DNA of 64,000 nt. It comes from a virus. The notes under the pieces are model-generated. The model was not told the DNA's origin. It saw only the letters and a list, made by a program, of their open reading frames with translations, and did no database searches. This document shows, one piece after another, positions 2-54,974 of the stretch; position 1 is the first letter of the stretch; each line of letters starts with the position of its first letter. The position numbers were made by a program, and so were the translations under genes. Location: positions 118,330 to 182,329 of the IMG/VR virus record IMGVR_UViG_3300026097_001223. One strand, given 5' to 3'.

Positions 2-589
2 GCTCCCGAAAGTGCAAACAATGCTGGCAGTCAAACCAGCTTCATTCCCATGCTGGTATTGGGTATACCTACTACTCCTATCATGGCACTGATGATAGCC
101 GCACTCTTAATACACCATGTAGTGCCTGGTCCTCAGATAGTCAGCACCAATCCCGAAGTTTTTTGGGGATTGATTGCCAGTATGTGGATAGGCAATCTGC
201 TGTTGCTGGTTTTGAATCTGCCGTTGATTGGTATTTGGATACGCATGTTAAATATAAGTTATAATATACTGTACCCAATTATACTGATATTTGCATGCCT
301 GGGCGTGTATGTGGTCACCAGCAATGTTGTTCATGTATTAATGACCGTTCCTTTTGCAGTGCTGGGTTATCTGTTTAAAAAATGGGAATGTGAACCCGCG
401 CCATTGATGATGGGATTCATAGTAGGAGCAGCCATGGAAGAACATCTACGCAGGGCCATGACCATCAGCAAAGGTGATTGGATGGTATTTGTGGAAAGAC
501 CTATCAGCGCCACACTGTTGGCTATCGCAACAGCATCTTTGGTTGTTGTGGCAATTTACGTTGCAAGGAGAGTGCGTGTACATTCGTGA
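2..589 (+). CDS. tctA: TctA-family tripartite tricarboxylate transporter large permease, 5'-truncated by the window edge
   Basis: Frame is open from base 2 and reads APESANNAGSQTSFIPMLVLGIP, a typical TctA motif. Multiple TM segments, CEPAPLMMGFIVG..MEEHLRRAM. Confidence 0.85.
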   Translation, partial: APESANNAGSQTSFIPMLVLGIPTTPIMALMIAALLIHHVVPGPQIVSTNPEVFWGLIASMWIGNLLLLVLNLPLIGIWIRMLNISYNILYPIILIFACLGVYVVTSNVVHVLMTVPFAVLGYLFKKWECEPAPLMMGFIVGAAMEEHLRRAMTISKGDWMVFVERPISATLLAIATASLVVVAIYVARRVRVHS

Positions 590-2587: not shown

Positions 2588-2615
2588 TTGACAAACAAGT
2601 TGTTTAGTGTAAACT
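2588..2615 (+). promoter_or_regulatory. sigma70-type early promoter
   Basis: TTGACA (2588-2593), 16 nt spacer, TAAACT (2610-2615), 11 nt upstream of a tRNA. Confidence 0.6.
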
Positions 2616-2626
2616 ATAAACAAGTT

Positions 2627-2703
2627 GGACCTATAGCTCAGTTGGTTAGAGCAGTGAACTCATAATTCATTGGCCCCTGGTTCGAGTCCAGGTGGGTCCA
2701 CCA
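2627..2703 (+). tRNA. tRNA with CAT anticodon, most likely tRNA-Ile2 (lysidine type)
   Basis: Acceptor GGACCTA/TGGGTCC, A73, encoded CCA. Anticodon arm GTGAA-CTCATAA-TTCAT; T-loop TTCGAGT. Overall pattern resembles E. coli ileX more than Met tRNAs. Confidence 0.9.
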
Positions 2704-2750
2704 ACTTATTCATAGCTGCAACTCGTAGTGCATAACTAAAACTAGGTACA

Positions 2751-2898
2751 GTTGAGGTCACCGTGAACATAGAGATTCATGGGTAATCGGGGAAGCAGTA
2801 AATCTGCACTGGCCTTGCAACGGTAGAGCGACACTGGGTCGCGAGTCCGAATGCCGTCCTCAATATTCTGGTACCGCAGAGCACAAGGTACTGCTCTG
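2751..2898 (+). promoter_or_regulatory. class II (AdoCbl-variant-like) cobalamin riboswitch
   Basis: P2 GTTGAGG/CCTCAAT; GGGGAA-GCAG-TAAAT-CTGC T-loop; L5 CCTTG (2813-2817) complementary to L13 CAAGG (2884-2888) of hairpin CAGAGCA/TGCTCTG; TCCGAATGCC (2846-2855) J6/3 motif. Lies directly upstream of a TonB-dependent receptor. Confidence 0.88.
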
Positions 2899-2920
2899 AC
2901 AACTTACAAAAAGGTACACA

Positions 2921-4531
2921 ATGAAAAAATCTATTCTCTCCATTGGCCTATTGGCCGTGTCTCTTTCTACGTCAGCAGAAACCACTGACATAACAATTTA
3001 TGTTACTCGAACACCAGTTGAACAAAGCATTGACACCAGGAGTTATACTAGAGCGGACTCTTTAGAACAACTGGAACAGTCTCCGGGTATTAATATTGTG
3101 CAGAGCGGACCGCGTGGACAAAATACCAGCATGTTTGCACGAGGCACAGAAAGTGACCATACACTGCTTGCTATCAACGGCATGCCTATCAAAGATCATA
3201 GCACTATATCTGGCAGTGATGACATTGGACAACACAGTTTGGCTGGTATTGATCAACTGTTGTTTATACGAGGTCCAGCCGGTAGCGCCTATGGGCCCAA
3301 TGCTGTAGGAGGTGCTGTTGACTTTATCAGTCGCGGCACAGGCGACAGTGTATCAGCATCAACTGGTACCTATGGTTATAAAAATCTGTATGGCAGTAAA
3401 CGTTTTGCAAAGGATTCCTTTGCTGGTAGCATTGCTGTTGAAACAGAACGTGCCAATGGCATTGATGTTCAGGACAACGGTGATCAGGACAGCTACACCA
3501 AGAAAAACATAAACCTGTATGGCAGTTGGATGCTGGATCAAGGCGACTTGTACTTGAACTATATCCAGTCAGACAATAGCAGTGACCTAGATGGATGGAA
3601 CGAAACCAGTAACTGGCAGTTTGATAACACACAACTTGGCTACGAAACACAAAGTGCTCGGATCGTCTACAATCAAGCAAATCATAAACGCATCTATGAT
3701 ACTTCCAGTGTGTATCTCAGCTCTGACGCTAGACTGTTGACTGAAAAAACCTGGAATCAATGGACAGTGAGCCTAGAGCACAGCAATCATGAGTACGACA
3801 GCAACAGTCGAACTGAGCAAGGGGCAGCTGTTGCTTATAATGATCAGTGGCTAAGTGCCGAATTGCGATCCGATGACACTGAGCTAGGGTCATTTGCCAG
3901 CTGGAGACTGGGCGTTTCTCACAGTGGTTTGCGAGCCAGCGTCGCCAACGGATTTAGAACCCCCAGCCTCTATGAAGTCTACGGTGATGATTTGTATGTA
4001 GAAGAAAACACAGGCCTGCAAGCAGAATATATCACTGCATATGAATTGGGATATAGAAACAGCTGGGTTGATACTGCTTTGTTTTTCAACCAAGAAACAG
4101 ACAGGATCACATACATCACTGATCCAGAGACCTATGTAGGACAGTACACAAACAACATCAAAGACACTGTTCGTACACACGGAGTTGAAACATCTCTTAC
4201 CAAAACTGTGGACGATGTTACTGTGAATTACAACTATACCTATACCTGGAGTGATGCAGACAAGCTGAGACAGCCAGCTCACATGCACAACCTTGCTCTT
4301 TTATATGGCAGTGTAACATATAGTGCACAGTATATAGGATCGCACCTGGACACTGACAGCAACACGTTTACTACAGTGAACATGAATGATGTGCTGTTAC
4401 AGAATTTGTCTTACAAGAAAAAATGGTTCACTGTGACGGTAAATAATATCACTGATCAACAGTATCAACGTCCAGATGGGTATCAACAATACGGACGCAC
4501 TATCACATTAAAGGCAGATTATGAATTCTAA
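2921..4531 (+). CDS. btuB: TonB-dependent outer-membrane receptor, BtuB-like (cobalamin)
   Basis: Signal peptide; plug motifs PGINIVQSGPRGQ.TSMFARG...DHTLLAING and RGPAGSAYGPNAVGG; FRTPSLYE; C-terminal GRTITLKADYEF ending in Phe; B12 riboswitch upstream. Confidence 0.8.
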   Translation: MKKSILSIGLLAVSLSTSAETTDITIYVTRTPVEQSIDTRSYTRADSLEQLEQSPGINIVQSGPRGQNTSMFARGTESDHTLLAINGMPIKDHSTISGSDDIGQHSLAGIDQLLFIRGPAGSAYGPNAVGGAVDFISRGTGDSVSASTGTYGYKNLYGSKRFAKDSFAGSIAVETERANGIDVQDNGDQDSYTKKNINLYGSWMLDQGDLYLNYIQSDNSSDLDGWNETSNWQFDNTQLGYETQSARIVYNQANHKRIYDTSSVYLSSDARLLTEKTWNQWTVSLEHSNHEYDSNSRTEQGAAVAYNDQWLSAELRSDDTELGSFASWRLGVSHSGLRASVANGFRTPSLYEVYGDDLYVEENTGLQAEYITAYELGYRNSWVDTALFFNQETDRITYITDPETYVGQYTNNIKDTVRTHGVETSLTKTVDDVTVNYNYTYTWSDADKLRQPAHMHNLALLYGSVTYSAQYIGSHLDTDSNTFTTVNMNDVLLQNLSYKKKWFTVTVNNITDQQYQRPDGYQQYGRTITLKADYEF

Positions 4532-5009
4532 TATACGACTTTTTTTATTTTTAGCAGGGGCACTGTTTTTATTTAGAATTGTGCCGCATCCTCCAAACTT
4601 TACACCTGTTATCGCGGCAACTGTGTTTGCCGCGTGTGCAGGACAGCGTTTTTGGGAAACCATGGCTGTGGTGCTACTGGCAATGTTTGTGAGTGATTTG
4701 TTTTTAGGATTACATGCTGGTATGCTGTGGGTATACGCCAGCCTGGTACTTGTGTTCGTGACCTCAAGGTATATGAGTTTACTTGCAAGCACACTGATTG
4801 GACCTACAGTATTTTTTGTGTCTAGTAATTTTGCAGTATGGTTGAGCGGATGGTATCCTATGACCCTTGAAGGGTTGATTACTTGTTATGTGGCTGCCAT
4901 ACCATTTTATGCGACCAGCTTGACTGCGACAGTGTTCTATGTTATATTATTTAAAATAATGCAACGTTATCTCGCAGTAGCTCAGCAGGATAGAGCATCG
5001 GACTTCTAA
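4521..5009 (+). CDS. integral membrane protein, DUF6580/ECF S-component-like, putative cobalamin transporter
   Basis: About 5-6 TM helices, PHPPNFTP motif, FFVSSNFAVW..GWYP...GLITCYVAAIPF; overlaps the btuB-like stop; last 13 codons lie inside tRNA-Arg. Confidence 0.7.
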   Translation: MNSNIRLFLFLAGALFLFRIVPHPPNFTPVIAATVFAACAGQRFWETMAVVLLAMFVSDLFLGLHAGMLWVYASLVLVFVTSRYMSLLASTLIGPTVFFVSSNFAVWLSGWYPMTLEGLITCYVAAIPFYATSLTATVFYVILFKIMQRYLAVAQQDRASDF

Positions 5010-5047
5010 TCCGAGGGTCGCAGGTTCGAATCCTGCCTGCGAGGCCA
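4971..5047 (+). tRNA. tRNA-Arg(TCT)
   Basis: Acceptor CTCGCAG/CTGCGAG, G73, CCA; anticodon arm TCGGA-CTTCTAA-TCCGA; T-arm GCAGG-TTCGAAT-CCTGC. Confidence 0.93.
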
Positions 5048-5088
5048 ATTATTCCTCTTGCCGCTAAGTACAAAAATAGGAAAAAATC

Positions 5089-5337
5089 ATGAACTTTTTT
5101 ATCATAGTACTATTAAGCGGATCGGTCAATGGAGCCGAAGAGTATTTTATTGTAACTGATCCAACATTTGAAACCATGGAACAGTGCGCAGATCATGGCG
5201 TTAACAACCAAAGTTCAGTGTTACAGGGCATGTACAATGCTACGGGTAGAACAAACTGGGACACAATAGCCTGCGTTGATAAAGAAAGATTACAATACAT
5301 GTTAAGAAATATAAAACCAGAAGGTATAGATGCATAA
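5089..5337 (+). CDS. small hypothetical protein with N-terminal hydrophobic segment
   Basis: ORF with SD-like AGGA; two Cys (TFETMEQC, IACV). Confidence 0.55.
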   Translation: MNFFIIVLLSGSVNGAEEYFIVTDPTFETMEQCADHGVNNQSSVLQGMYNATGRTNWDTIACVDKERLQYMLRNIKPEGIDA

Positions 5338-6091
5338 AACTCCAGAAAACATAAGCAATTGGATAAAAACCTACGCTGAAGATGCTGGACTCGAAACTCT
5401 AGTGGTAGGTGTAAGTGGCGGCATTGACAGTGCTGTAGTGAGCACACTGTGTGCAATGACTGGCATGAACACAGTGGTAGTGAGCATGCCTATTAGACAA
5501 AAGGACGAGCAACATGAACTCAGTGTTGATCATTGTTTGGCATTGCTTGAAAGATTTCCAAATGTTCACTGGGACACTGTGAATCTCACTGAAGCGTTTG
5601 AACAACTAGAAACACTGTTTGCAAACACGCAATACAACAGTGAATTAGCATTTGCCAACAGCCGCAGTAGACTGAGAATGATCACACTGTACCAAATTGC
5701 AGGAAGCACTCGCGGACTTGTGGTGGGCACTGGCAACAAGGTTGAAGACTTTGGCGTTGGGTTTTACACCAAGTATGGCGATGGCGGTGTTGACATTTCG
5801 CCCATTGCAGACCTAACAAAAACTCAAGTTTGGGAAATGGGAAAAACAATCGGCGTCGATCAACGCATCATTGATGCCAAGCCCACCGACGGATTATGGG
5901 ACGATGGTCGAAACGACCAGGATCAATTAGGCGGATTGACCTATTCACAATTAGAAGAAGCCATGCGCCTAGCAGATGCAGTGCGAGCAGGTGCTCCTCT
6001 AGAAGCGCATGAAAAACGACTGCTAGACAAGTACAACGAGATTCGCAAACCAAACCTGCACAAGATGAATCCAATTCCTGTATTTAAATGA
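5330..6091 (+). CDS. nadE: NH3-dependent NAD+ synthetase
   Basis: GVSGGIDSAVV PP-loop, RLRM, GTGNKVE, GFYTKYGDGGVDISPIADLTKTQV, KPTDGLW. Confidence 0.93.
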   Translation: MHKTPENISNWIKTYAEDAGLETLVVGVSGGIDSAVVSTLCAMTGMNTVVVSMPIRQKDEQHELSVDHCLALLERFPNVHWDTVNLTEAFEQLETLFANTQYNSELAFANSRSRLRMITLYQIAGSTRGLVVGTGNKVEDFGVGFYTKYGDGGVDISPIADLTKTQVWEMGKTIGVDQRIIDAKPTDGLWDDGRNDQDQLGGLTYSQLEEAMRLADAVRAGAPLEAHEKRLLDKYNEIRKPNLHKMNPIPVFK

Positions 6092-6678
6092 GCAACATAC
6101 CAAAAAATAAAAGCGTTTTAATTTTTGCATATTTTCGAAGTGGTAGCACTGCTCTCTGTGACCAAATTGCTAAACAATTAAATGTCCCTAATTTTGACGA
6201 AGCATTTCATAACTGTTACCCTGACAGAAGAGATGAATTTTTAAAATATTATCCTAAGCGTTGTGTATTCAAAATCATGGGCGATCAAACTGGAGGGAAG
6301 TATACCGCCCAAATTAACAATGCATTCCGAGACTGCTACACTATAAAATTAACAAGACGAGATTTAGCAGCACAATGTACAAGCTGGGTTATAAGTCAAA
6401 TGGGCTACATATGGCATCAATACAAAACTATGCAAATGTCAGATTATACCATTGAAATTGACCATAAATGGTTTAAGTTATATATAAATCAAATTTTGCA
6501 AAGCAATCAACTTATTGATAGTTTTACAAGATATACCAACTTTGACAAACATTTGGTATACGAAGATTTAAAACCAATTACCGGTGACTATATAAAGCGT
6601 AAAAAACCTACTAACTACACGGAAGTATATGATTCGGTTAAAATTATCTTGGAAAGAAATCATGGATATAACTTATGA
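6088..6678 (+). CDS. sulfotransferase-like protein
   Basis: N-terminal FRSGSTALC 5'-PSB-like loop; LTRRDLAAQCTSW 3'-PB-like segment; YED motif. Confidence 0.5.
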   Translation: MSNIPKNKSVLIFAYFRSGSTALCDQIAKQLNVPNFDEAFHNCYPDRRDEFLKYYPKRCVFKIMGDQTGGKYTAQINNAFRDCYTIKLTRRDLAAQCTSWVISQMGYIWHQYKTMQMSDYTIEIDHKWFKLYINQILQSNQLIDSFTRYTNFDKHLVYEDLKPITGDYIKRKKPTNYTEVYDSVKIILERNHGYNL

Positions 6679-7349
6679 ATCTTGTTGTATTCGGCGACAG
6701 TTTTGCTCATGGGATTAATAAAGAACCTTATCGCATGTTAAACGAGGAAAGTAACGCACAAAGCTTTGCGCAACAGATTGTTGACCAATCTAATGTGTTT
6801 TCTGAATGTATAAACAATGGCAAATCGGGAAATAGCAACGGTTGCATTGCCCATGATGTGTACCAATATACTCTAGAAAACAATACCAGTAACTGTTTTT
6901 TTCTTATTTGTTGGACCACTCCTTTGAGAAGACATCGGTGGAACGGGAAAACTTATGTGCCTTGTAATGCGCAAATTGCAGAATATACAAATCACAGCAG
7001 AATTTATGAAACTCTTAGAGATATTGCACTTGTAGCAAATTTCTTACAGCATAACAATATTCCATACTTGATGACTCAAGCATTTGATGACTTAAAAAAA
7101 TACACACACGACAAAACCATAATGATTCCTAACTGGATAGAATATCCAGCGCCTAATAACACACTTTTTGACATCTGCGCAAAAAGGTGGCTCAGTGATG
7201 TTGAACACAATGATTACAAAAAAAATCATGCTACGTTTGATGTAGAGACCGAATATCTTGCTGGATGTAAACACCCTAACAAACTAGGTCATCAGAAGAT
7301 TGCAGAAACATTGTTGCCTTACATTTTACAAAAGATTTCAAAAAAATAA
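6675..7349 (+). CDS. SGNH/GDSL hydrolase-like protein
   Basis: FGDSF block I, NNGKSGNSN block II, HPNKLGH block V. Confidence 0.65.
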   Translation: MNLVVFGDSFAHGINKEPYRMLNEESNAQSFAQQIVDQSNVFSECINNGKSGNSNGCIAHDVYQYTLENNTSNCFFLICWTTPLRRHRWNGKTYVPCNAQIAEYTNHSRIYETLRDIALVANFLQHNNIPYLMTQAFDDLKKYTHDKTIMIPNWIEYPAPNNTLFDICAKRWLSDVEHNDYKKNHATFDVETEYLAGCKHPNKLGHQKIAETLLPYILQKISKK

Positions 7350-7730: not shown

Positions 7731-8762
7731 ATGCAATTATCTGATATACAAAGCTTACAATGTGAAATTACATCCTACTGTAATGCAAGATGTCCGCAGT
7801 GCCCTCGTTTTGATCAATATGGTAATCTTTATCCTGGCTTGACATTGCAGCACTGGAATCACCGTGATATTTTAGCAAACATAGATCTTGATCAACTAAC
7901 CGGTCTAAACTTGGTAAGGATAGAAGGCGACAAAGGCGATCCTGTGATGCATCCAGATTGTTACGATATTGTAAAATTCTTTGTGCAAGCTCCTAGTAAG
8001 CCACTGGTAAGATTGGTTACAAATGGCAGTATTCAAACAGAAGATTGGTGGCACAATCTAGGTGAACTCAGTAATGAAAATAACTTTGATGTGATTTTTA
8101 GCATTGACGGGTTGGAAGATACAAATCATATCTACCGTATAAACACCGACTACAATAAAATCATGAGAAATGCCCGTGCATTCATAAATGCGGGCGGGCA
8201 AGCTATTTGGAAGTTTTTGGTCTTTAAGCACAACGAACATCAGCTTGATACAATTACCACTCTTGCACAAACCATGGGCTTTGCTGCAATTCAAGTTAGA
8301 AAGGCCGACGACTATAGATTTCTTGGCAACAAAAGTTTTGTTGTTTACGATAAAGGAAACCCAGTTGGAGAAATTGAACCTAGCAATATACCAAGAGAAC
8401 AACTGTTGTATTTTAAATGGTTTAACCAAGAAAAAGAATTTATTCCTAGACATGAGATAGACAAACATTGTGTTTGGATGAGTCAAGGTAAAATGAACAT
8501 TACGTTTCAAGGCTATCTCATGCCATGCTGTATGATGCATCATGTGCTCAATGACGTAGACAAAGATCTGGTAAAACAGACTGTTGAACTCATGCACAAT
8601 CCCAATGATTTACTTTTGACAAAACACACCGTCGGTACTATACTGAATAGTAAATTTTATAAATATAATCTAGAAACTCATCTCCAAAGTACTAACCTGC
8701 ATCCAATTTGCGAAACCAACTGTAGATCACAGATAAAGGACAAACTAATTGCAACTGACTAA
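7731..8762 (+). CDS. radical SAM protein with C-terminal Cys-containing (twitch/SPASM-like) domain
   Basis: CNARCPQC (CxxxCxxC), GDKGDP, TNGS, FSIDG, additional Cys in PCCMM and PICETNC. Confidence 0.85.
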   Translation: MQLSDIQSLQCEITSYCNARCPQCPRFDQYGNLYPGLTLQHWNHRDILANIDLDQLTGLNLVRIEGDKGDPVMHPDCYDIVKFFVQAPSKPLVRLVTNGSIQTEDWWHNLGELSNENNFDVIFSIDGLEDTNHIYRINTDYNKIMRNARAFINAGGQAIWKFLVFKHNEHQLDTITTLAQTMGFAAIQVRKADDYRFLGNKSFVVYDKGNPVGEIEPSNIPREQLLYFKWFNQEKEFIPRHEIDKHCVWMSQGKMNITFQGYLMPCCMMHHVLNDVDKDLVKQTVELMHNPNDLLLTKHTVGTILNSKFYKYNLETHLQSTNLHPICETNCRSQIKDKLIATD

Positions 8763-8976
8763 TTTATTAAAATGGCTGGCTACTGGGATACTGGTAATAG
8801 GCACTATATTTAACGCCCTTGGGTATTACCCACTCGGGCCGTATATTCTAGCAACAGGTGGATATGTATGGCTAATAGTTGCAATTCGTTGGCGTGACTG
8901 GGCACTTATACTAACTAATGCTGTAATGAGTACAACAGGATTAGCACTAACACTGTACACAGTGTATTTTACATAG
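8749..8976 (+). CDS. small membrane protein
   Basis: About 3 hydrophobic helices; KWLAT...YPLGPY...WLIVAIRWRDWALILTN. Confidence 0.65.
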   Translation: MQLTNLLKWLATGILVIGTIFNALGYYPLGPYILATGGYVWLIVAIRWRDWALILTNAVMSTTGLALTLYTVYFT

Positions 8977-8988
8977 GAAAAACAACAA

Positions 8989-10053
8989 ATGAAAATATCA
9001 AAAATCCCAGGGCTGGGTAGATTTGGTGTATTCATCGACGACGTCGATTTTAAAAATATCACAGATGAAGAATGGATGGAAATCGGCAAGATCCATTTAG
9101 ACAGTCTGGTAACCATAATTCGGAACACAAAGCTGGATCCCGATCGCTACAATGAATTGATGTTAAAGTGGGGCACTCCCCGAGGCGTAGAAAACTTTAA
9201 TGTATACAAAAAATATGGTATTAACAGCGGAAAAGAGTTTTACGAAAGATGCTTTGCCGAAGATCCCACTATTGACCAAAAGCACCGAGAGTGGGGGAAA
9301 CATCTTTACAGACTAAGTCATCGTCCTGCTCTTTTACGTGTTTCTGGCAAACTGGACGAAGACGGAAATCCAATTGGCATGTTTGCTGAGGGCGAGCTGT
9401 TGTGGCACAGTAATGAGTCTGGTAACTTAACCTTTACGCCGGGTGTGAGTCTATTAGGCCAGGAAAACATGATTGGGTCATCCACTGGGTTTGTAACCAC
9501 AGTTGATTGGTATGAATCGCAGTCAGATAGTTTCCGCAGCGAGCTGGATGAAATGATTGTGCTTCACAAGTTTACTCCGGGCAAAGTGAATCCAGGCCTG
9601 AGAGAAGAACAAGATGTTCTCATGCGAGCCATGTGTGTAGCAGACGATACTGAAATTCCAATGGTAATGAACAGTCCAGGTGGATTCACTGGGTTGCACT
9701 ACAGTGTAAACACAATGGACCGTATCAAAGGAATGACCAAAGAAGAAAGCGATAAAATATTTGATATCATTGGCAAGGGTATCTTTACTGAAGAAAATAT
9801 CTACGACCATTGGTACCAGCACGACGATGACCTGTTGTTGTTTGACAATTCAATAACACTGCATCGAAGACTGGGCGATGTGAAAGGACGACTTGCATAT
9901 CGAATTCAGTACGACTATGAAACTGTGCTTGACGAGCCATGGATGCCATATCGTCAAGAGCCTTATCAAAGTGAATATATTGAACAGATCACTGAACAGG
10001 TTGAATTTATGGGACCAAGAAAGTCAAGGTTCAAACTTCCAGAGATCTCTTGA
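8989..10053 (+). CDS. TauD/TfdA-family Fe(II)/2-oxoglutarate dioxygenase-like protein
   Basis: LGRFGVFIDDVD start, WHSNES at the first iron-ligand position, DLLLFDNSITLHRR...RLAYR C-terminal motif. Confidence 0.75.
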   Translation: MKISKIPGLGRFGVFIDDVDFKNITDEEWMEIGKIHLDSLVTIIRNTKLDPDRYNELMLKWGTPRGVENFNVYKKYGINSGKEFYERCFAEDPTIDQKHREWGKHLYRLSHRPALLRVSGKLDEDGNPIGMFAEGELLWHSNESGNLTFTPGVSLLGQENMIGSSTGFVTTVDWYESQSDSFRSELDEMIVLHKFTPGKVNPGLREEQDVLMRAMCVADDTEIPMVMNSPGGFTGLHYSVNTMDRIKGMTKEESDKIFDIIGKGIFTEENIYDHWYQHDDDLLLFDNSITLHRRLGDVKGRLAYRIQYDYETVLDEPWMPYRQEPYQSEYIEQITEQVEFMGPRKSRFKLPEIS

Positions 10054-11149: not shown

Positions 11150-11233
11150 TGGAAGACACAGGGTTTGTACTATTTTGTTTAGGTATTGCATTTTTGTTAG
11201 CAACCATGGTCGCTGATACATAGCATAAAAGTT

Positions 11234-11241
11234 TATAAATA
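11234..11241 (+). promoter_or_regulatory. T4-type late promoter core upstream of tmRNA
   Basis: Exact TATAAATA. Confidence 0.6.
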
Positions 11242-11246
11242 ACAGT

Positions 11247-11570
11247 ATTCGTTGAGACGAAGTAATAGGTTGACGGACCCGGGTTCGACCCCCGGCTGCT
11301 CCACCAAAGATACATCTACAACTCCGAGAGAGTAGACCGAAAGGTGAAATAGTAGGAGACGAACGTGGTGTATCTTTGATGGGGCAGATTATGGATTCGA
11401 CGGCGACTGAAAGGCTTCGTGGAGAATCGTCAAGGCAGAAGACGTTAGGATTGGGGGTTCCCGGTCGAAGAAGCAAACTAAAGTAAACGCAAACGATGAA
11501 AACTTTGCACTTGCTGCCTAACTAGGACAGCGGAGAAACAAGGGATGCTTGGCAACAGAAAGAACCTTGA
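11247..11570 (+). ncRNA. ssrA: circularly permuted (two-piece) tmRNA; tag peptide ANDENFALAA
   Basis: Acceptor piece ends CCGGG-TTCGACC-CCCGG-CTGCTCC-A-CCA (11306). An intervening segment follows, then the coding piece starts GGGGCAG (11381) and gives a G3:U70 pair. GGATTCGAC motif; resume codon GCA at 11489, TAA at 11519-11521; GGCAACAGAA at 11551. Outer ends are approximate. Confidence 0.93.
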
Positions 11571-11596
11571 TTTTTGTGCACCTGCTAAATATGTGC

Positions 11597-11773
11597 ATGA
11601 TTTATGTATTGGTGTTAATAGGCGTACTCAACTCTACAGCTGAAGTAGAAACTCTTGGCACATTTACCACCATGCAAGAATGTTTTCAAGCACGTGAGCA
11701 GGTTGTGGAATCCATTGGGAGACCAATCATCAACTATCAAGCAGTGTGTGTATTACATAAACACAGTCAATAA
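11597..11773 (+). CDS. small secreted/membrane hypothetical protein
   Basis: ATG 5 nt after TAAATA; hydrophobic N-terminus; F.TMQECF...QAVC two-Cys pattern like 5089-5337. Confidence 0.55.
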   Translation: MIYVLVLIGVLNSTAEVETLGTFTTMQECFQAREQVVESIGRPIINYQAVCVLHKHSQ

Positions 11774-11845: not shown

Positions 11846-11875
11846 ACACATATACTTTTTAATCAAGGAGTAACA

Positions 11876-12448
11876 ATGAAAGAAGGACAAAAGGTGCCAG
11901 AGGTAACCTTTAAGTATCGTGTTCGCACAGACGGCAAACCCATCACATATGTTGATGAGACCAATGGTGGCGACAATCCATTTGAGTTCAAAGACATTTC
12001 AACAGCAGACATCTTCGGCGGAAAAACAGTTGTAGTATTTTCGCTGCCAGGGGCATACACACCAACCTGTAGTACATATCAAGTGCCAGGATTTGAAGAA
12101 AAATATGCTGATTTTGTAAATCACGGTGTAGATGATATCTACGTATTAAGTGTAAATGACACATTTGTTATGCGTCGTTGGATGATTGATCAGGGTGTGA
12201 AAAACATCAAGTTCATTCCAGATGGCAATGGTGAATTTACAGAAGGCATGGGCATGCTTAATTGCATGACAGCAGTGGGCTTTGGCAACCGCAGTCGTCG
12301 GTATGCCATGATTGTCAAGGATGGCACCATAGAGAAGATGTTTGTTGAACCAGATTCAACAGCAGACAATCCCGATCCATATGGCAAAAGTTCGCCCGAG
12401 TCGGTATTAGAATATCTTTTCGAAGAAACAATAGCTGAGTTAACATAA
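11876..12448 (+). CDS. peroxiredoxin (Prx5 type)
   Basis: FSLPGAYTPTCS peroxidatic motif, SVNDTFVM, FIPDGNGEFT, RSRRYAMIV.DG. Confidence 0.93.
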   Translation: MKEGQKVPEVTFKYRVRTDGKPITYVDETNGGDNPFEFKDISTADIFGGKTVVVFSLPGAYTPTCSTYQVPGFEEKYADFVNHGVDDIYVLSVNDTFVMRRWMIDQGVKNIKFIPDGNGEFTEGMGMLNCMTAVGFGNRSRRYAMIVKDGTIEKMFVEPDSTADNPDPYGKSSPESVLEYLFEETIAELT

Positions 12449-12458
12449 GGAGAAAACT

Positions 12459-12893
12459 ATGAGCGTTAAAGGCACTAAAACAGAACAGGCATTGAAAGAT
12501 GCTTTTGCAGGCGAATCAAAAGCAAACCGTCGCTATTTGTATTTTGCAAACATGGCAGACATTGAAGGTGCTCCAGAAGTAGCCAATGTATTCCGTAATA
12601 CAGCAGAAGGCGAGACTGGTCACGCACACGGCCACATGGAGTATCTAATCACAGGCGGTGCAGGTGATCCAGAAACAGATCTTCCAGCAGGCAATGTGGT
12701 AGAAGCATTAGAAAGTGCTATTGCAGGTGAAACGCATGAGTACACCGACATGTACCCAGGCATGGCAAAGACTGCACGTGACGAAGGCTTTGATGAGATT
12801 GCTGATTGGTTTGAAACACTGGCCAAAGCAGAGCGTTCACATGCTAACAAGTTCAAGAAGACACTTGATGCATACAACGAAGAAAACGCATAA
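12459..12893 (+). CDS. rubrerythrin/erythrin di-iron protein lacking a rubredoxin domain
   Basis: [39 protein letters not shown]. Confidence 0.92.
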
Positions 12894-13171: not shown

Positions 13172-13528
13172 ATGACTGAAACTCAACTGCTTTTTGCACT
13201 ATTCTCCTGGCTGGTTTTAACCAGCATTATATACACTATCACAGGTTGGCAACGTGTTGCTGACTGTTATCGTATGTGGTTTACTCGTGAATACTGGACT
13301 GACTATAACATTATAGAGGCTGCAAGCTGGATTGCCAAAGCCATAATTATTATTCCTGGATTGATTTTTGGAATACAAATTTGGCAATTTTACTTTGTTG
13401 CACTGGCTACCAGCATGACACTGATTTGGGCAAGCAACAAAAAGTTGTTACCAACTCTTGTAGGATTCAACACCCTGTGGATTTGGTTGAGTATGATGGT
13501 AATTGCGCAGAACATAATCGATGTATAG
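13172..13528 (+). CDS. hypothetical membrane protein
   Basis: About 4 TM segments. Confidence 0.7.
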   Translation: MTETQLLFALFSWLVLTSIIYTITGWQRVADCYRMWFTREYWTDYNIIEAASWIAKAIIIIPGLIFGIQIWQFYFVALATSMTLIWASNKKLLPTLVGFNTLWIWLSMMVIAQNIIDV

Positions 13529-15107
13529 AAAACCAGTAAAAAATATAGTAGTACTAGGTGGCGGCACTGCTGGTTGGCTTGCGGCAGGCTATATCAGCAG
13601 TCAACTGCCCGATGTCACCATAACCGTTATTGAAAGTGACAAGACAAAAATTGTTGGTGTAGGCGAAACCACTGTGCCACAGTTTCGTACACATCTCGAA
13701 AAGATGGGTTTACAAGAAAGTCAATGGATGAAAGCCAGCGGCAGTACATTTAAATATGGCGCACGATTTGATGGCTGGCGCACAGGATCGGACAGCAGGT
13801 GGCATGGGTTCGGTGATTTCCTAGGAGAGAAAAGTATTCTGAAAAGCACTGGCGAAATCAACAAGGCCAGTGCATCCAAGGAAACAGACCATGCAATTGA
13901 CTGCGACTACTGGTTTAAATTATTACAGCAAAACAAAATATCAGGATCTCAGTTGAACTGGTTCAACAGCGAAGCCTACTATCTAATAAAACACAGCCGA
14001 GCACACGCTCTAATGGATGGCACACAGGTTGCAAGTCGGTGTCCAGGGTATGCATACAACATCAATGCGTTCAAAGTAGGGCAAGCAATAAAAGATCTAG
14101 TGGCAATGCCAAATGGAGTTGTGCATAAAGTTGCACACATCGATCAAGTTGTTTACGCAGAAGATCAAAGTGTGGACTATCTCATAGACAGCAATGGACA
14201 AAAGCACACTGCTGATTTGTACATAGATTGCACAGGATTCCGTAGGTTGCTTATTGGAGAGCATTCAAAATGGATTAGTTTCAGTGATCGGTTAGGATGT
14301 CAAAACGCCATCGGCGGCCGAGTGCAATACAACGACGACCAAGAAACTGCTTGTGATCCTGTGTTACACACCACAGCAATGAGTGCAGGGTGGAGTTGGC
14401 GAGTACCTCTACGAGACGACACTGGATCAGGCTGTGTGTTTGACTCACGGTTTATAGATCCAGATGATGCCGAACAAGAGCTGATCGATCTCTGGAAAAG
14501 CAGAGGCAAAGAAATTGACATTAAAGTGCGTATAAAATACGACAACGGTATATTAGATCGCAGTGCTCACAGAAACGTTGTTGCAGTTGGTCTTGCTAGT
14601 AATTTTTTAGAACCATTGGAAGCAACCAGCATCAGCTTTACCACTCTTGCCAACGAATTAATAGTGCAGCTGATACAAAAACACAACGGACACTGGGGGC
14701 ATCGTGACAGCGAAACACTCTCGCGACTGATGCGACGAGAAATTGACTATACTACTGATTTCATTTGGTTACACTATGCGTTAACACAACGAAAAGACAC
14801 AGAATTCTGGCGCCATGTAGGACAGCATCGCGAACAGGCCTTGCAATTGGCATACAGATGGTACCTTGACAACGTCGACATACATCGTCGAGAAAAAGAT
14901 TTCGATCACACACGATATAACAAATTTGATTGGGCACAGATGCTTACTAGCCAGTGTGCCTATCATGACGTTCCTACTCATCCAGTTGACTCTCGTTTTC
15001 TAGAACGGGCACTGATTCAGTATCAATATCGAGATACTGTAGGACAATGGATGTCTCGCACCCTGCCTAGTCATTGGCAATATCTATTGCATATCAATAA
15101 CAGCTAA
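13521..15107 (+). CDS. flavin-dependent halogenase (tryptophan halogenase family)
   Basis: GGGTAGW FAD loop, GVGETT, STFKYG (PrnA K79 position), DLYIDCTGF, GWSWRVP (WxWxIP), FLEPLEATSI. Confidence 0.9.
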   Translation: MYRKPVKNIVVLGGGTAGWLAAGYISSQLPDVTITVIESDKTKIVGVGETTVPQFRTHLEKMGLQESQWMKASGSTFKYGARFDGWRTGSDSRWHGFGDFLGEKSILKSTGEINKASASKETDHAIDCDYWFKLLQQNKISGSQLNWFNSEAYYLIKHSRAHALMDGTQVASRCPGYAYNINAFKVGQAIKDLVAMPNGVVHKVAHIDQVVYAEDQSVDYLIDSNGQKHTADLYIDCTGFRRLLIGEHSKWISFSDRLGCQNAIGGRVQYNDDQETACDPVLHTTAMSAGWSWRVPLRDDTGSGCVFDSRFIDPDDAEQELIDLWKSRGKEIDIKVRIKYDNGILDRSAHRNVVAVGLASNFLEPLEATSISFTTLANELIVQLIQKHNGHWGHRDSETLSRLMRREIDYTTDFIWLHYALTQRKDTEFWRHVGQHREQALQLAYRWYLDNVDIHRREKDFDHTRYNKFDWAQMLTSQCAYHDVPTHPVDSRFLERALIQYQYRDTVGQWMSRTLPSHWQYLLHINNS

Positions 15108-52005: not shown

Positions 52006-52750
52006 AAATTCCGACGAACAAGAAATTAAACGTGCATATCGAAAACTGGCCATGAAGCATCATCCAGATCGCGGCGGCAACCCTGAAGAGTTTGCTAAAG
52101 TGCAGGAGGCGTACGACATGTTGACTAATACACAAGCTCGCGGGCACTTTGATAGTCCTCAGCCCGACTTTGATTTCAGTGGCGGCGGATTCGAAGATAT
52201 TTTCTCTCATGTGTTTGGCACAGACGGTTCATTTGGGTTTGGGCCCAGGCAACAAAGACAGCAGCGAATGCAACGTATTCAAGTGCCGATTGATTTTAAA
52301 ACCAGTCTAACCGGCGGTGTTCAGCATATTGCACTTGCCGGATTCCGGGACCCGATTGAAATTCAAGTGCCCAGTGGAGTTGACAACGGAGATCAAATAC
52401 GCTATCCTAGACTATTACAAGGTGAAGATCTTGTGGTACTGTTTAGAGTTCATCCTCATCCGGAATATCATCGTGATAGACTGGATCTACACACGGAAAT
52501 ATCTGTAGACGTGTTTGATCTCATTCTAGGGCACACTGTGATGTTTACTTCGCTGTGTGGTAAAACCATAAAACTTAATATCAAAGCTGGCACTCAACCG
52601 GAAACAGTTTTGAGAATACCGCACATGGGTGTAGAAAAGGGGCATGTTAAAGGCAACCTATACATCAAAGTAAGAGCAAGAATACCAGACAATGTCGACG
52701 ACAACGTATTAAATACTATCAAAGCCAACAGAGAAAAAAATGAGCAATAA
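51974..52750 (+). CDS. dnaJ: DnaJ-class co-chaperone without Zn finger
   Basis: DYYQVLG, AYRKLAMKHHPD, G/F-rich linker, C-terminal domain with LRIP..G. Confidence 0.9.
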   Translation: MDYYQVLGISRNSDEQEIKRAYRKLAMKHHPDRGGNPEEFAKVQEAYDMLTNTQARGHFDSPQPDFDFSGGGFEDIFSHVFGTDGSFGFGPRQQRQQRMQRIQVPIDFKTSLTGGVQHIALAGFRDPIEIQVPSGVDNGDQIRYPRLLQGEDLVVLFRVHPHPEYHRDRLDLHTEISVDVFDLILGHTVMFTSLCGKTIKLNIKAGTQPETVLRIPHMGVEKGHVKGNLYIKVRARIPDNVDDNVLNTIKANREKNEQ

Positions 52751-54974
52751 AAATCCCGAAATTGAAGGCATCCTTGCCCATGCAACTGAAATTGCAACCA
52801 AGGCAAATCACGAGTATGTTACCTGTGAACATTTGCTATCTGCACTGGTTCAGCATCCTCCATTTGAAAAGTGTTTACAGGAGTTCGGCGCAGACACTGA
52901 ACAGCTGATTGCAGAACTGGACGCTTACTTGGAAAGTCTCAACAGCATTATCAGCACTGCCGGCGGCCGTCCTAGGAAAACAGCGGCGCTGGAGCGAGTG
53001 TTCAATAGAGCGATGACTCAAGTGCTGTTTACTGGCAGGGACAATGTGAGCACTGTTGACCTTTATCTTGCTATCATGGCCGAGACCAACAGCTTTGCTC
53101 AATACTTCTTGCTCAAGCAAAACATCACTAGAGAACAATTTGCTGACCACTGGCACGAAACCTATGACTCCGGTGACTACAGCAAAGTTTCTGGCGCACA
53201 AGCAAACAAAGTATTGTCAGAGTATTGTACCGATGTTACAGCACGAGCCGAGACCGGTGAGCTTGAACCAATGATTGGTCGAGAAAAAGAAGTTGACGAA
53301 ATTGTAACGGTGTTGGCCAAAAAATGGAAGGCTAATGTAATGCTGATCGGCGACCCAGGAGTAGGAAAAACAGCCATTGTGGAAGGGCTGGCACAATCCA
53401 TTGCAGATAAGTCTGTTCCAGAGTACCTGCAGACTGCAAGAATTTGGAGTCTCGAAGTTGGCAACTTGGTCGCGGGCAGTAAGTATCGCGGAGACTTTGA
53501 AGAAAAACTTAAAAATGTGCTTGAAGCACTGGAAAGTATTCCCAACAGCATCTTGTTTATTGACGAAGCACACACCATCAAAGGTGCAGGCAGTGTAAGC
53601 AAAGGCGAAGGTCTTGACTTTGCAAACATGTTGAAACCACATATCACAACTGGTAAAATCAAGGTTATTGCCAGCACTACCTGGGAAGAATACTACGAAA
53701 GCTTCGAAAAAGATCGTGCATTGATGCGCAGATTCTACAATGTTAATGTAGACGAGCCCGACAACGACACCACGGTAAAGATCATGCTTGGATTGAAAAA
53801 ACGCCTGGAAAGCTATCACGGAGTTGAAATTGACCAAGCCGCTGTAGAAGAAACTGTGCAACTAACTGCTCGATATATCCCGGACAGAAAAAATCCAGAC
53901 AAGAGTATAGATCTACTAGACACAACCTGTGCGTATGTACGCAGTCACAGCGATGTGGGCAAAGAGATTACTAAAAATCTTGTGATGAATAGACTGAGTC
54001 ATATCACTGGCATTCCAGAAAACAAGTTGAAAAGTAACGCTAGTGCTAAGATACAGAATCTAGAAGGTGCAATCAAAGAAAAACTCTACGGACAAGACAG
54101 CGTAGTTGACAGTGTGCTGGACAGAATTTACATGAGCTTCGGCGGACTAGGCAGTGCCAATCGGCCACAAACCAGTATGTTATTCCTAGGCCCAACTGGC
54201 ACAGGTAAAACTGAGCTAGCTCGTCAACTAAGCAAGAACCTCGACATGCATCTACTGCGCTATGATATGAGTGAGTATCAAGAGCGACACAGTGTCAGCA
54301 GTTTACTAGGAGCGCCTCCGGGTTATGTGGGGTTCGGCGAAGCCAGTCAAGGCGGCGGCAGATTGATCAGCGATATCAGCAAGCATCCGTTTAGTGTTCT
54401 GTTGTTCGACGAAGTGGAAAAGGCACACCCAGATGTGTACAATATTTTTCTACAGATGCTAGACGAAGGCACTATCACTGGCACAAATGGCAAAACAGTA
54501 AATGTTAAAAACTGTATTGTAATAATGACATCAAATCTGGGTGCCAGGGCCAATGAACAGAACGCAATTGGGTTTGGATCACTGGAAAACACCGGCAAAG
54601 AAGATCAAGAACTAAAGGACTTTTTCCGTCCTGAATTGAGAAACAGAATCGATCTTGTGTGCAAGTTTGATAAACTGGACAATCTCAGTGTGCGCAAAGT
54701 TGTGTTAAAATTCTTGCATGAACTAGAAGCACGATTAAAAGACAAAAACATCACTGTGGAATTCACAGAAGCATTGATCGGGCACGTTGCTGAAAATGGT
54801 TATGACAGTGCCATGGGTGCTAGACCATTGGCTAGATATATCGATGAACATGTAAAAGTTCCGCTGAGCAAGCAGATCTTGTTCCAGGAACTGCAGGATA
54901 CACACATCAAGCTGGATATCAGCAACGGCGAAGTGGTCATATCTCAACACGAAAAGTCATTAAGCAATGCATAA
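52740..54974 (+). CDS. clpA: ClpA-type AAA+ unfoldase
   Basis: HEYVTCEHLL, GDPGVGKT/IDEAH, GPTGTGKT/DMSEY/GAPPGYVG/FDEVEK, IGF ClpP-docking loop, no ClpB middle domain. Confidence 0.88.
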   Translation: MSNKNPEIEGILAHATEIATKANHEYVTCEHLLSALVQHPPFEKCLQEFGADTEQLIAELDAYLESLNSIISTAGGRPRKTAALERVFNRAMTQVLFTGRDNVSTVDLYLAIMAETNSFAQYFLLKQNITREQFADHWHETYDSGDYSKVSGAQANKVLSEYCTDVTARAETGELEPMIGREKEVDEIVTVLAKKWKANVMLIGDPGVGKTAIVEGLAQSIADKSVPEYLQTARIWSLEVGNLVAGSKYRGDFEEKLKNVLEALESIPNSILFIDEAHTIKGAGSVSKGEGLDFANMLKPHITTGKIKVIASTTWEEYYESFEKDRALMRRFYNVNVDEPDNDTTVKIMLGLKKRLESYHGVEIDQAAVEETVQLTARYIPDRKNPDKSIDLLDTTCAYVRSHSDVGKEITKNLVMNRLSHITGIPENKLKSNASAKIQNLEGAIKEKLYGQDSVVDSVLDRIYMSFGGLGSANRPQTSMLFLGPTGTGKTELARQLSKNLDMHLLRYDMSEYQERHSVSSLLGAPPGYVGFGEASQGGGRLISDISKHPFSVLLFDEVEKAHPDVYNIFLQMLDEGTITGTNGKTVNVKNCIVIMTSNLGARANEQNAIGFGSLENTGKEDQELKDFFRPELRNRIDLVCKFDKLDNLSVRKVVLKFLHELEARLKDKNITVEFTEALIGHVAENGYDSAMGARPLARYIDEHVKVPLSKQILFQELQDTHIKLDISNGEVVISQHEKSLSNA

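Follow-up and report, generated by a model that had tools for sequence, protein, structure and literature searches.

A probable phage-borne operon for corrinoid uptake, with a compact cobalamin-type leader, a BtuB-like receptor and a DUF6580 membrane protein

BtuM of Thiobacillus denitrificans works without an energy-coupling factor (ECF) module and co-localises with btuB, and in the BtuM family an invariant cysteine (Cys80 in BtuM_Td) ligates cobalt (PMC6072759). ECF-CbrT (PDB 6FNP) is the B12-specific ECF S-component system of L. delbrueckii (PMC5997447). In phages, glutamine riboswitches have been reported for the OM43 phage Melnitz, pelagimyophages and cyanophages (PMC9004378). The phage riboswitches described in searchable papers were of the glutamine type, and a full-text literature search brought up neither a phage cobalamin riboswitch nor a phage btuB. 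TonB, B12 and btuB are also absent from the main text of the 2020 survey of pelagimyophages. To our knowledge, the B12-related metabolic genes of phages encode steps of synthesis (cobS and cobT) and not of uptake. Here, we describe a cassette at positions 2588-5047 (+ strand) of a 64,000-nt window, which comprises bases 118330-182329 of the 182,329-b IMG/VR virus record IMGVR_UViG_3300026097_001223 (estimated completeness ~52%). The cassette consists of a promoter, a tRNA-CAU, a leader RNA, a receptor gene, a DUF6580 gene and a tRNA-Arg, arranged as a single unit.

The cassette is probably a phage-borne operon for the uptake of corrinoids (vitamin B12) that derives from a layout of B12 riboswitch, btuB and DUF6580 gene occurring in bacteria. 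Its elements, in window coordinates, are the following.

2588-2615, + strand: sigma-70-like promoter TTGACA-16-TAAACT, ahead of the tRNA (consensus scan)
2627-2703, + strand: tRNA with anticodon CAT, Ile2-like (ARAGORN; Rfam tRNA, 71.2 bits)
2738-2876, + strand: putative compact cobalamin riboswitch aptamer (RF00174, 29.2 bits; RF01689, 19.2 bits)
2877-2898, + strand: P13-like hairpin with loop CAAGG (sequence reading; present in the minimum free energy (MFE) fold)
2911-2923, + strand: Shine-Dalgarno sequence AAGGU (2911-2915) and ATG start (2921) (sequence reading; conserved in the related contigs L002-L005)
2921-4531, + strand: BtuB-like TonB-dependent receptor, 536 aa (Plug PF07715; TIGR01779 as best family)
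4521-5009, + strand: DUF6580 membrane protein, 162 aa (PF20221; ECF S-component fold in the AlphaFold2 (AF2) model)
4971-5047, + strand: tRNA-Arg (TCT), the last element of the unit (ARAGORN; Rfam, 72.2 bits)

The receptor and the DUF6580 protein

The receptor matched the Plug domain PF07715 with 48.6 bits (E 1e-12), and its best NCBIfam families were two BtuB equivalogs, TIGR01779 (123.8 bits; cut-off 599.7) and NF007926 (91.1 bits; cut-off 836). In a phmmer search of the PDB, E. coli BtuB was found at E 8e-19, followed by Cir at 2.5e-7, and BLASTP aligned the receptor with E. coli BtuB over the full length, from the plug to the C-terminal Phe (24% identity, E 3e-22). The signal peptide is followed by a TonB-box-like DITIYVT that resembles the TonB box of BtuB. 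Moreover, the AF2 model of the receptor (predicted local distance difference test (pLDDT) score 78.6) had BtuB 2gsk as its top Foldseek match (E 9e-27, template modelling (TM) score 0.79; 3m8d, TM 0.81) and aligned to BtuB across 582 columns. The plug, TonB-box-like motif and barrel of a TonB-dependent transporter were therefore all found, and the close relative P0002 additionally carries PF00593. An earlier note, made from the letters of this DNA, had named a BtuB-like TonB-dependent receptor, and BtuB indeed ranked best by NCBIfam, PDB sequence search, BLASTP and fold. The receptor shares with E. coli BtuB (PDB 1NQE-1NQH, 2GSK) a plug and barrel that align from end to end, a TonB-box-like motif at the N-terminus and an aromatic residue at the C-terminus; at 24% identity, it is ~60 residues shorter in the mature form. 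The ratio of nonsynonymous to synonymous substitutions (dN/dS) was 0.14, indicating purifying selection.

In a quick maximum-likelihood tree, three phage receptors fell into a fully supported 16-member clade together with the receptor of contig L018, which belongs to an AdoCbl-II/DUF6580 operon, and with a group from Hyphomicrobiales and Rhodobiaceae metagenome-assembled genomes (MAGs). FepA and CirA were placed outside this clade, so the receptor does not group with these two, and its clade is shared with a riboswitch-linked receptor. The receptor query gave no match in viral contigs, and among the INPHARED phages btuB was found solely as the bacterial type in misfiled records.

The product of the second gene matched PF20221 with 112.6 bits (E 2.9e-32; gathering threshold 27 bits) and contains the family motif R-x-x-P-H-P-P-N-F-T-P. 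Its AF2 model (pLDDT 87.6) has six helices, and the top 14 VIA structural matches were all ECF S-components (Z 9.6-12.2, 140-154 residues aligned), indicating that the modelled protein has the ECF S-component fold. In Foldseek, every E-value exceeded 0.4. Neither BtuM (6FFV) nor CbrT was among the structural matches listed, which says nothing on a difference in fold. At the sequence level, phmmer found no match in the PDB, and a profile of 38 DUF6580 homologues gave one weak match, 6fnp_A (E 0.055, 16 bits), a chain of the ECF-CbrT vitamin B12 transporter entry; 6FFV was not matched by this profile at E up to 10. BtuM and CbrT are, like the DUF6580 protein, small inner-membrane proteins with an S-component fold, B12 carriage being a property of BtuM and CbrT. 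DUF6580 differs from BtuM in having no detectable sequence match to it and no invariant or nearly invariant Cys among the 38 sequences, and therefore does not share the defining feature of BtuM. The gene is under strong constraint (dN/dS 0.07). It starts 11 nt before the end of the receptor gene, and this overlap suggests that its translation is coupled to that of the receptor. Together with the PF20221 match and the S-component fold, the overlap upholds the previous description of a coupled DUF6580/ECF-S-like inner-membrane protein.

In two bacterial genomes (L016 and L017), the DUF6580 gene shares an operon with genes for a TonB-dependent receptor and a PduO adenosyltransferase; this operon is divergent from metH and is preceded by Cobalamin riboswitches that score 102 and 109 bits. 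These operons resemble the phage unit in the combination of a leader of the B12-sensing type, a BtuB-like receptor and a DUF6580 inner-membrane protein. Their leaders are full-length Cobalamin riboswitches (102-109 bits), whereas that of the phage is compact and scores below the threshold. Their receptors comprise 652-685 aa and are 16% identical to the phage receptor, and the phage unit is bracketed by tRNAs and lacks pduO and metH.

Structure and conservation of the leader RNA

At the gathering threshold, an Rfam scan gave no Cobalamin match in the window. A match to RF00174 appeared with permissive filters only; it covered positions 2738-2876 (+) and the full model (1-189) with 29.2 bits (E 1.3e-5, or 1.1e-6 when the whole 182-kb record was scanned), the curated cut-off being 31.5 bits. 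At the same place, RF01689 (AdoCbl-II; cut-off 36.5 bits) scored 19.2 bits in the window and 24.9 bits in the related phage contig L003. A scan of 52 kb of relatives at E <= 0.01 missed the Cobalamin match. The cobalamin aptamer predicted beforehand thus has a covariance-model match with a low E-value, but one that stays below the curated score.

The helices were mapped as P1a (2745-2749/2871-2875), P1b (2752-2757/2858-2863), P2 (2761-2782), P3, P4 (2795-2807), P5 with L5 at 2812-2817, and P6 with a 5-bp mini-hairpin at 2828-2842. The core helices P1-P6, the B12 box and the conserved junctions of RF00174 are present, with modest covariation support from two deep lineages. Specifically, the aptamer carries the B12-box-like GAGUCCGAAUGCCG and has kept all of GGGGAA, CACUG, GCAAC and GAGUCCGA, the motifs of the core junctions. 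The L5 bases CCUUG (2813-2817) are complementary to CAAGG (2884-2888), part of the 8-nt loop that closes a hairpin with a 7-bp stem (2877-2898), precisely where the earlier note had placed its CCTTG/CAAGG kissing-loop pair. These bases are invariant in all lineages, and a contact between L5 and L13, as in class II, is predicted from them. Johnson et al. reportedly described env8-type class-II cobalamin riboswitches with such an L5-L13 kissing loop in 2012.

The further claim of a full class II aptamer was apt only in part. As in class-II/AdoCbl-II riboswitches (RF01689), the large P6 extension is absent, the loop of the hairpin after P1 complements L5, and control is likely to be translational. 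However, the leader has a 7-bp P2 hairpin, whereas in the AdoCbl-II model P1 is joined to P3 without P2; it also has the P6 mini-hairpin, scores better on the general Cobalamin model than on RF01689 (19.2 bits where 36.5 are required), and has a Shine-Dalgarno sequence that is not part of P13 but follows it at a distance of 13 nt. The description as a compact, diverged cobalamin aptamer would therefore fit the sequence better.

The lineages of the window and of L003, between which the synonymous sites of the flanking genes are saturated (proportion of synonymous differences (pS) 0.65-0.78), share 88% identity over the stretch from the aptamer to P13. All 47 proposed pairs, including those of the kissing loop, are standard in all four distinct sequences. 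Two pair changes are compensatory (one in P2 and one in the P6 hairpin, both from G:C to A:U), three are one-sided and none is disruptive, and the substitutions in paired columns (7/7) keep pairing; in controls with slid partners, pairing fell to 32-40% of cells. The P13 stem still pairs despite a change from C:G to U:G, and the bases of L5 and L13 do not vary. Because the window itself supplied the sequence from which the structure was drawn, and two deep lineages are all that exist, this pairing test is supportive rather than statistically strong. The conservation of the leader in the face of saturated synonymous sites is the stronger argument. The exact 35-nt aptamer pattern had no match in viral contigs, and a search of metagenome contigs with the B12-box pattern found nothing beyond the L003-type contig.

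Upstream of the tRNA, four lineages have the -35 block GTTGACAAA without any change although the rest of the spacer has diverged, and the block is also found in the marine contig X5, so transcription by the host polymerase from upstream of the tRNA is likely. The gap between tRNA and aptamer (2704-2737) contains a small hairpin whose sequence varies across lineages while its pairing is kept. A -10-like element (CATAAC / TATAAT) lies 3' of this hairpin and may represent a processing site or a second start. On the other side of the promoter, an open reading frame (ORF) of 424 aa (1309-2583) had no Pfam or PHROG match; it is missing from L002 and from the X5 marine contig, where the TctA-adjacent gene abuts the conserved promoter.

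Phage origin and rearrangement of the cassette

The cassette is phage DNA and not a chimera. Genes for portal, tail sheath, large terminase and helicase lie upstream of it, baseplate-type proteins are encoded downstream in the window, and 199 of the 228 ORFs are on one strand. The order tRNA, leader, receptor, DUF6580, tRNA, 82-aa ORF and NadE is repeated in the ENA scaffold L002 (receptor identity 93%), which also has the upstream TctB/TctA and radical-SAM genes in common with the window phage. Further contigs with this gene order, whose receptors are 67% identical, come from ENA, JGI and Logan (L003-L005; L109). In the probable source run, contig depth was 21.2 upstream of the cassette, 19.7 within it and 22.7 on its downstream side. 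Positions 2675-7345 are spanned, at ~94% identity, by a 4.2-kb contig that was assembled from an independent marine run. The earlier note had raised the danger that host DNA had been misassembled onto the phage contig, an explanation that we regard as extremely improbable. The genes are of bacterial type, and Logan contigs break at the flanking tRNAs; however, independent ENA, JGI and Logan assemblies give the same order with phage flanks, depth in the source run is flat over the joins, the GC content of the cassette is inside the phage range, and the independent marine contig bridges the leader to genes past NadE. The phage also occurs in saltern, marine, seawater, salt-lake and estuary metagenomes. 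When 20 kb of the window was compared with INPHARED, no nucleotide match was obtained.

The two tRNAs that flank the transport genes had been called tRNA-Ile2 and tRNA-Arg, and both calls hold. ARAGORN typed the tRNA with anticodon CAT as Met, and its best E. coli matches are annotated as tRNA-Ile (~81% identity), which fits the Ile2 assignment; it is 99-100% conserved in L002 and L003. The tRNA-Arg(TCT) at 4971-5047 overlaps the final 39 nt (13 codons) of the DUF6580 frame, and its position is identical in L002 and L003.

Related phages carry the module in other forms. The Tara contigs L107 and L108 encode homologues of the primase (38%) and DnaB (59%) together with a 256-aa protein, in the order found at 74.5-78.7 kb of the record (G000), in which dnaB occupies 77327-78733. 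Directly after dnaB (L107 3800-6315; L108 256-2751), they have an AdoCbl-II riboswitch (82.9 bits), a DUF6580 gene (45% identical) and a receptor gene (30%), and L018 (1-2507), likewise from Tara Oceans, has the same three elements with its 5' end cut. The receptor frame of L108 is apparently split into ORFs of 186 and 348 aa. These contigs resemble the window in phage group, in the two transport genes and in the presence of a cobalamin-class leader. They differ from it in that the gene order is inverted, the cassette directly follows dnaB instead of lying in a tRNA region, and the leader is a canonical AdoCbl-II (82.9 bits) without P2. In L015 (DnaB 60% identical), DUF6580 is present alone. 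In a related phage form from the saltern run X2 (joint at window 2703-4538), the tRNA is joined to DUF6580 through 35 nt containing TATAAATA, leader and receptor being absent, and the same run holds receptor-bearing contigs too. These forms suggest that the inner-membrane gene is the constant piece, whereas the receptor and the switch have been gained, lost and moved. We give an even chance to a broader proposal, in which a giant aquatic phage family carries, shuffles and sometimes trims its own two-membrane corrinoid import module, the diverged riboswitch seen here reads the B12 status of the cell before investment in the receptor, and DUF6580 is a third family of solitary S-component-like B12 importers beside BtuM and CbrT.

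Sensing, substrate and benefit

Several observations speak against an operon that imports B12 under the control of B12. For the leader, the aptamer scores under the curated cut-offs of both RF00174 and RF01689, the Shine-Dalgarno sequence sits 13 nt downstream of P13 and outside the hairpin, a clear sequestration that depends on the ligand was not seen in thermodynamic folds, and no terminator was found 3' of the aptamer. For the transport proteins, the receptor is far under the BtuB equivalog cut-off (124 vs 600 bits), and the nearest bacterial receptors, those of the Hyphomicrobiales/Rhodobiaceae MAGs (30-33% identity), are followed by DUF6552 and not by DUF6580. Searches for a cobalamin riboswitch were negative throughout three MAGs of the Hyphomicrobiales type and, on the Hyphomicrobiales-type contig L006, upstream of the receptor. 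A full-text search found no paper mentioning DUF6580, and the family has no characterised member. For the phage itself, no B12-binding domain, no PduO adenosyltransferase and no TonB (TonB_C domain) were found in the 182 kb of the record; because this record is only ~52% complete, B12 enzymes, PduO and TonB are not excluded for the phage.

With the Shine-Dalgarno sequence outside P13, the textbook gating of class II does not apply as such, and the lack of a terminator 3' of the aptamer makes translation the most plausible level of control. Unconstrained ensembles gave just a weak local hairpin at the Shine-Dalgarno site, and the z-score of the MFE of the leader was -0.9. The motif AAGGUAC occurs twice, in L13 and at the Shine-Dalgarno site, and GUACC (2871-2875), which forms the 3' strand of P1a, has two possible partners, the GGUAC at 2745-2749 and the GGUAC at 2913-2917. 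This repeat and the alternative pairing may be relevant to gating. A rather unlikely alternative is that the leader is a decayed remnant without B12 sensing and that functional transport genes are expressed constitutively from a phage-controlled promoter. The sub-gathering scores on both Rfam models, the position of the Shine-Dalgarno sequence without an evident sequestering structure, and the saltern phage form, which drops leader and receptor and has TATAAATA directly before DUF6580, would agree with decay. Against decay stand the 88% identity across lineages with saturated synonymous sites, the preserved pairing at all seven substitutions in paired columns, the invariant L5 and L13, and the intact junction motifs. 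No RNA run was among the public runs listed as holders of the phage.

The pair of proteins might also import a cargo other than complete cobalamin, such as a corrinoid precursor (cobinamide or a similar compound), a tetrapyrrole of a different kind, or a metal chelate. This reading, which we consider improbable, is kept chiefly because of the MAG receptor group that lacks a cobalamin riboswitch and is linked to DUF6552. The very short receptor with its trimmed loops and its score far below the BtuB equivalogs agrees with it, as does the lack in DUF6580 of the invariant cysteine that defines BtuM (PMC6072759). On the other hand, a cobalamin-class leader lies directly upstream of the receptor gene, DUF6580 genes are repeatedly found under strong Cobalamin or AdoCbl-II riboswitches and adjoining pduO and metH, and by sequence BtuB ranks well above the siderophore and haem receptors. 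The window itself contains a 75-aa DUF6552 gene (8749-8976, 29.1 bits), which is 31% identical to the DUF6552 directly after the closest bacterial receptor homologue on L006. Redoxin genes were considered as a further link between the phage and L006, but the two are unrelated to each other.

A class II ribonucleotide reductase or MetH had been suggested as the beneficiary of the imported B12. A phage enzyme of this kind is not supported by the ~52% complete record, in which the ribonucleotide reductase is of class I (NrdA with an ATP-cone, and NrdB) and no B12-binding domain was found in the 182 kb. Most likely, the benefit would lie in a supply of B12 to enzymes of the host, for example MetH, while a giant phage goes through its long infection. 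Several radical SAM enzymes, which are users of S-adenosylmethionine, are encoded by the phage. TonB-dependent receptors often serve as receptors for phages and colicins. The main role of the phage receptor could accordingly lie not in nutrition but in competition between phages or in remodelling of the envelope, for example if it served as a decoy or as a changed surface receptor with an effect on superinfection; in the 182 kb, no phage enzyme that uses B12 was found. We regard this as very unlikely, since the receptor gene is inherited together with that of an inner-membrane carrier, to which it is translationally coupled, stands behind a leader of the metabolite-sensing type, and keeps its plug, TonB-box-like motif and C-terminal barrel motif under purifying selection, whereas some relatives retain the inner-membrane gene only.

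Under the preferred reading of a corrinoid uptake operon, host RNA polymerase would start at the sigma-70-like promoter and transcribe the region from the Ile2-like tRNA to the tRNA-Arg as one unit, and tRNA processing would then free the ends of the mRNA. The receptor would be exported via the host Sec and BAM machineries, inserted in the outer membrane and supplied by host TonB-ExbBD for bringing corrinoids into the periplasm, from which the DUF6580 protein, as a translationally coupled solitary ECF-S-like carrier, would move the corrinoid over the inner membrane. At high cellular B12, the ligand would stabilise P1 and the L5-L13 kissing loop and thereby lower the translation of the receptor, in a presumed OFF logic. 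The proposal that the phage installs both membrane steps of B12 import and keeps ligand feedback therefore stands for its components, namely the BtuB-like receptor, the ECF-S-fold protein and the conserved cobalamin-type leader; for the feedback, it is the conservation of the leader that makes it plausible.

A giant phage of saline and marine waters thus probably makes infected cells import B12 while sensing the B12 level of the cell. If true, this would be new on two counts, as viruses would rewire micronutrient uptake across both membranes and would retain a cis-acting ligand feedback. As material for experiments, the cassette also offers a minimal 536-aa BtuB-like receptor, a compact aptamer for structural work and an independent line of evidence for DUF6580 as a B12 transporter family. 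The Melnitz-type phages are comparable in that a marine phage with a metabolite-sensing leader also encodes a two-piece transfer-messenger RNA (tmRNA) (PMC9004378). Unlike in the phages with glutamine riboswitches, the ligand class here would be another one, and the putative switch precedes transport genes for the same metabolite, as in a bacterial operon.

The two-piece (permuted) tmRNA of the window phage lies at 11190-11612 and has the tag ANDENFALAA (tmRNA_permuted, 97 bits; alpha_tmRNA, 60 bits). Just upstream of the cassette, TctB/TctA genes of a tripartite tricarboxylate transporter (window 2-589, G000 117407-118918; L002 6904-8831) constitute a second membrane-transport module on the phage. 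Downstream, a run of metabolic genes (5330-6091, 7731-8762, 8989-10053, 11876-12893 and 13521-15107) encodes NAD synthase, radical SAM/SPASM, TauD-family dioxygenase, Redoxin-family, rubrerythrin and tryptophan-halogenase-like proteins. Another RNA motif, Rfam 'freshwater-2', was matched at G000 11865-11947 (L009) with 56.9 bits (cut-off 49.9). Additionally, a ClpA/ClpB-like AAA+ protein is encoded at 52740-54974 (phrog_4871, 802 bits), and its closest phage relatives are those of the jumbo phages Sinorhizobium phage Phosso (43%) and Agrobacterium phage Atu_ph07 (38%). These relatives and the alpha-type tmRNA hint at an alphaproteobacterial host.

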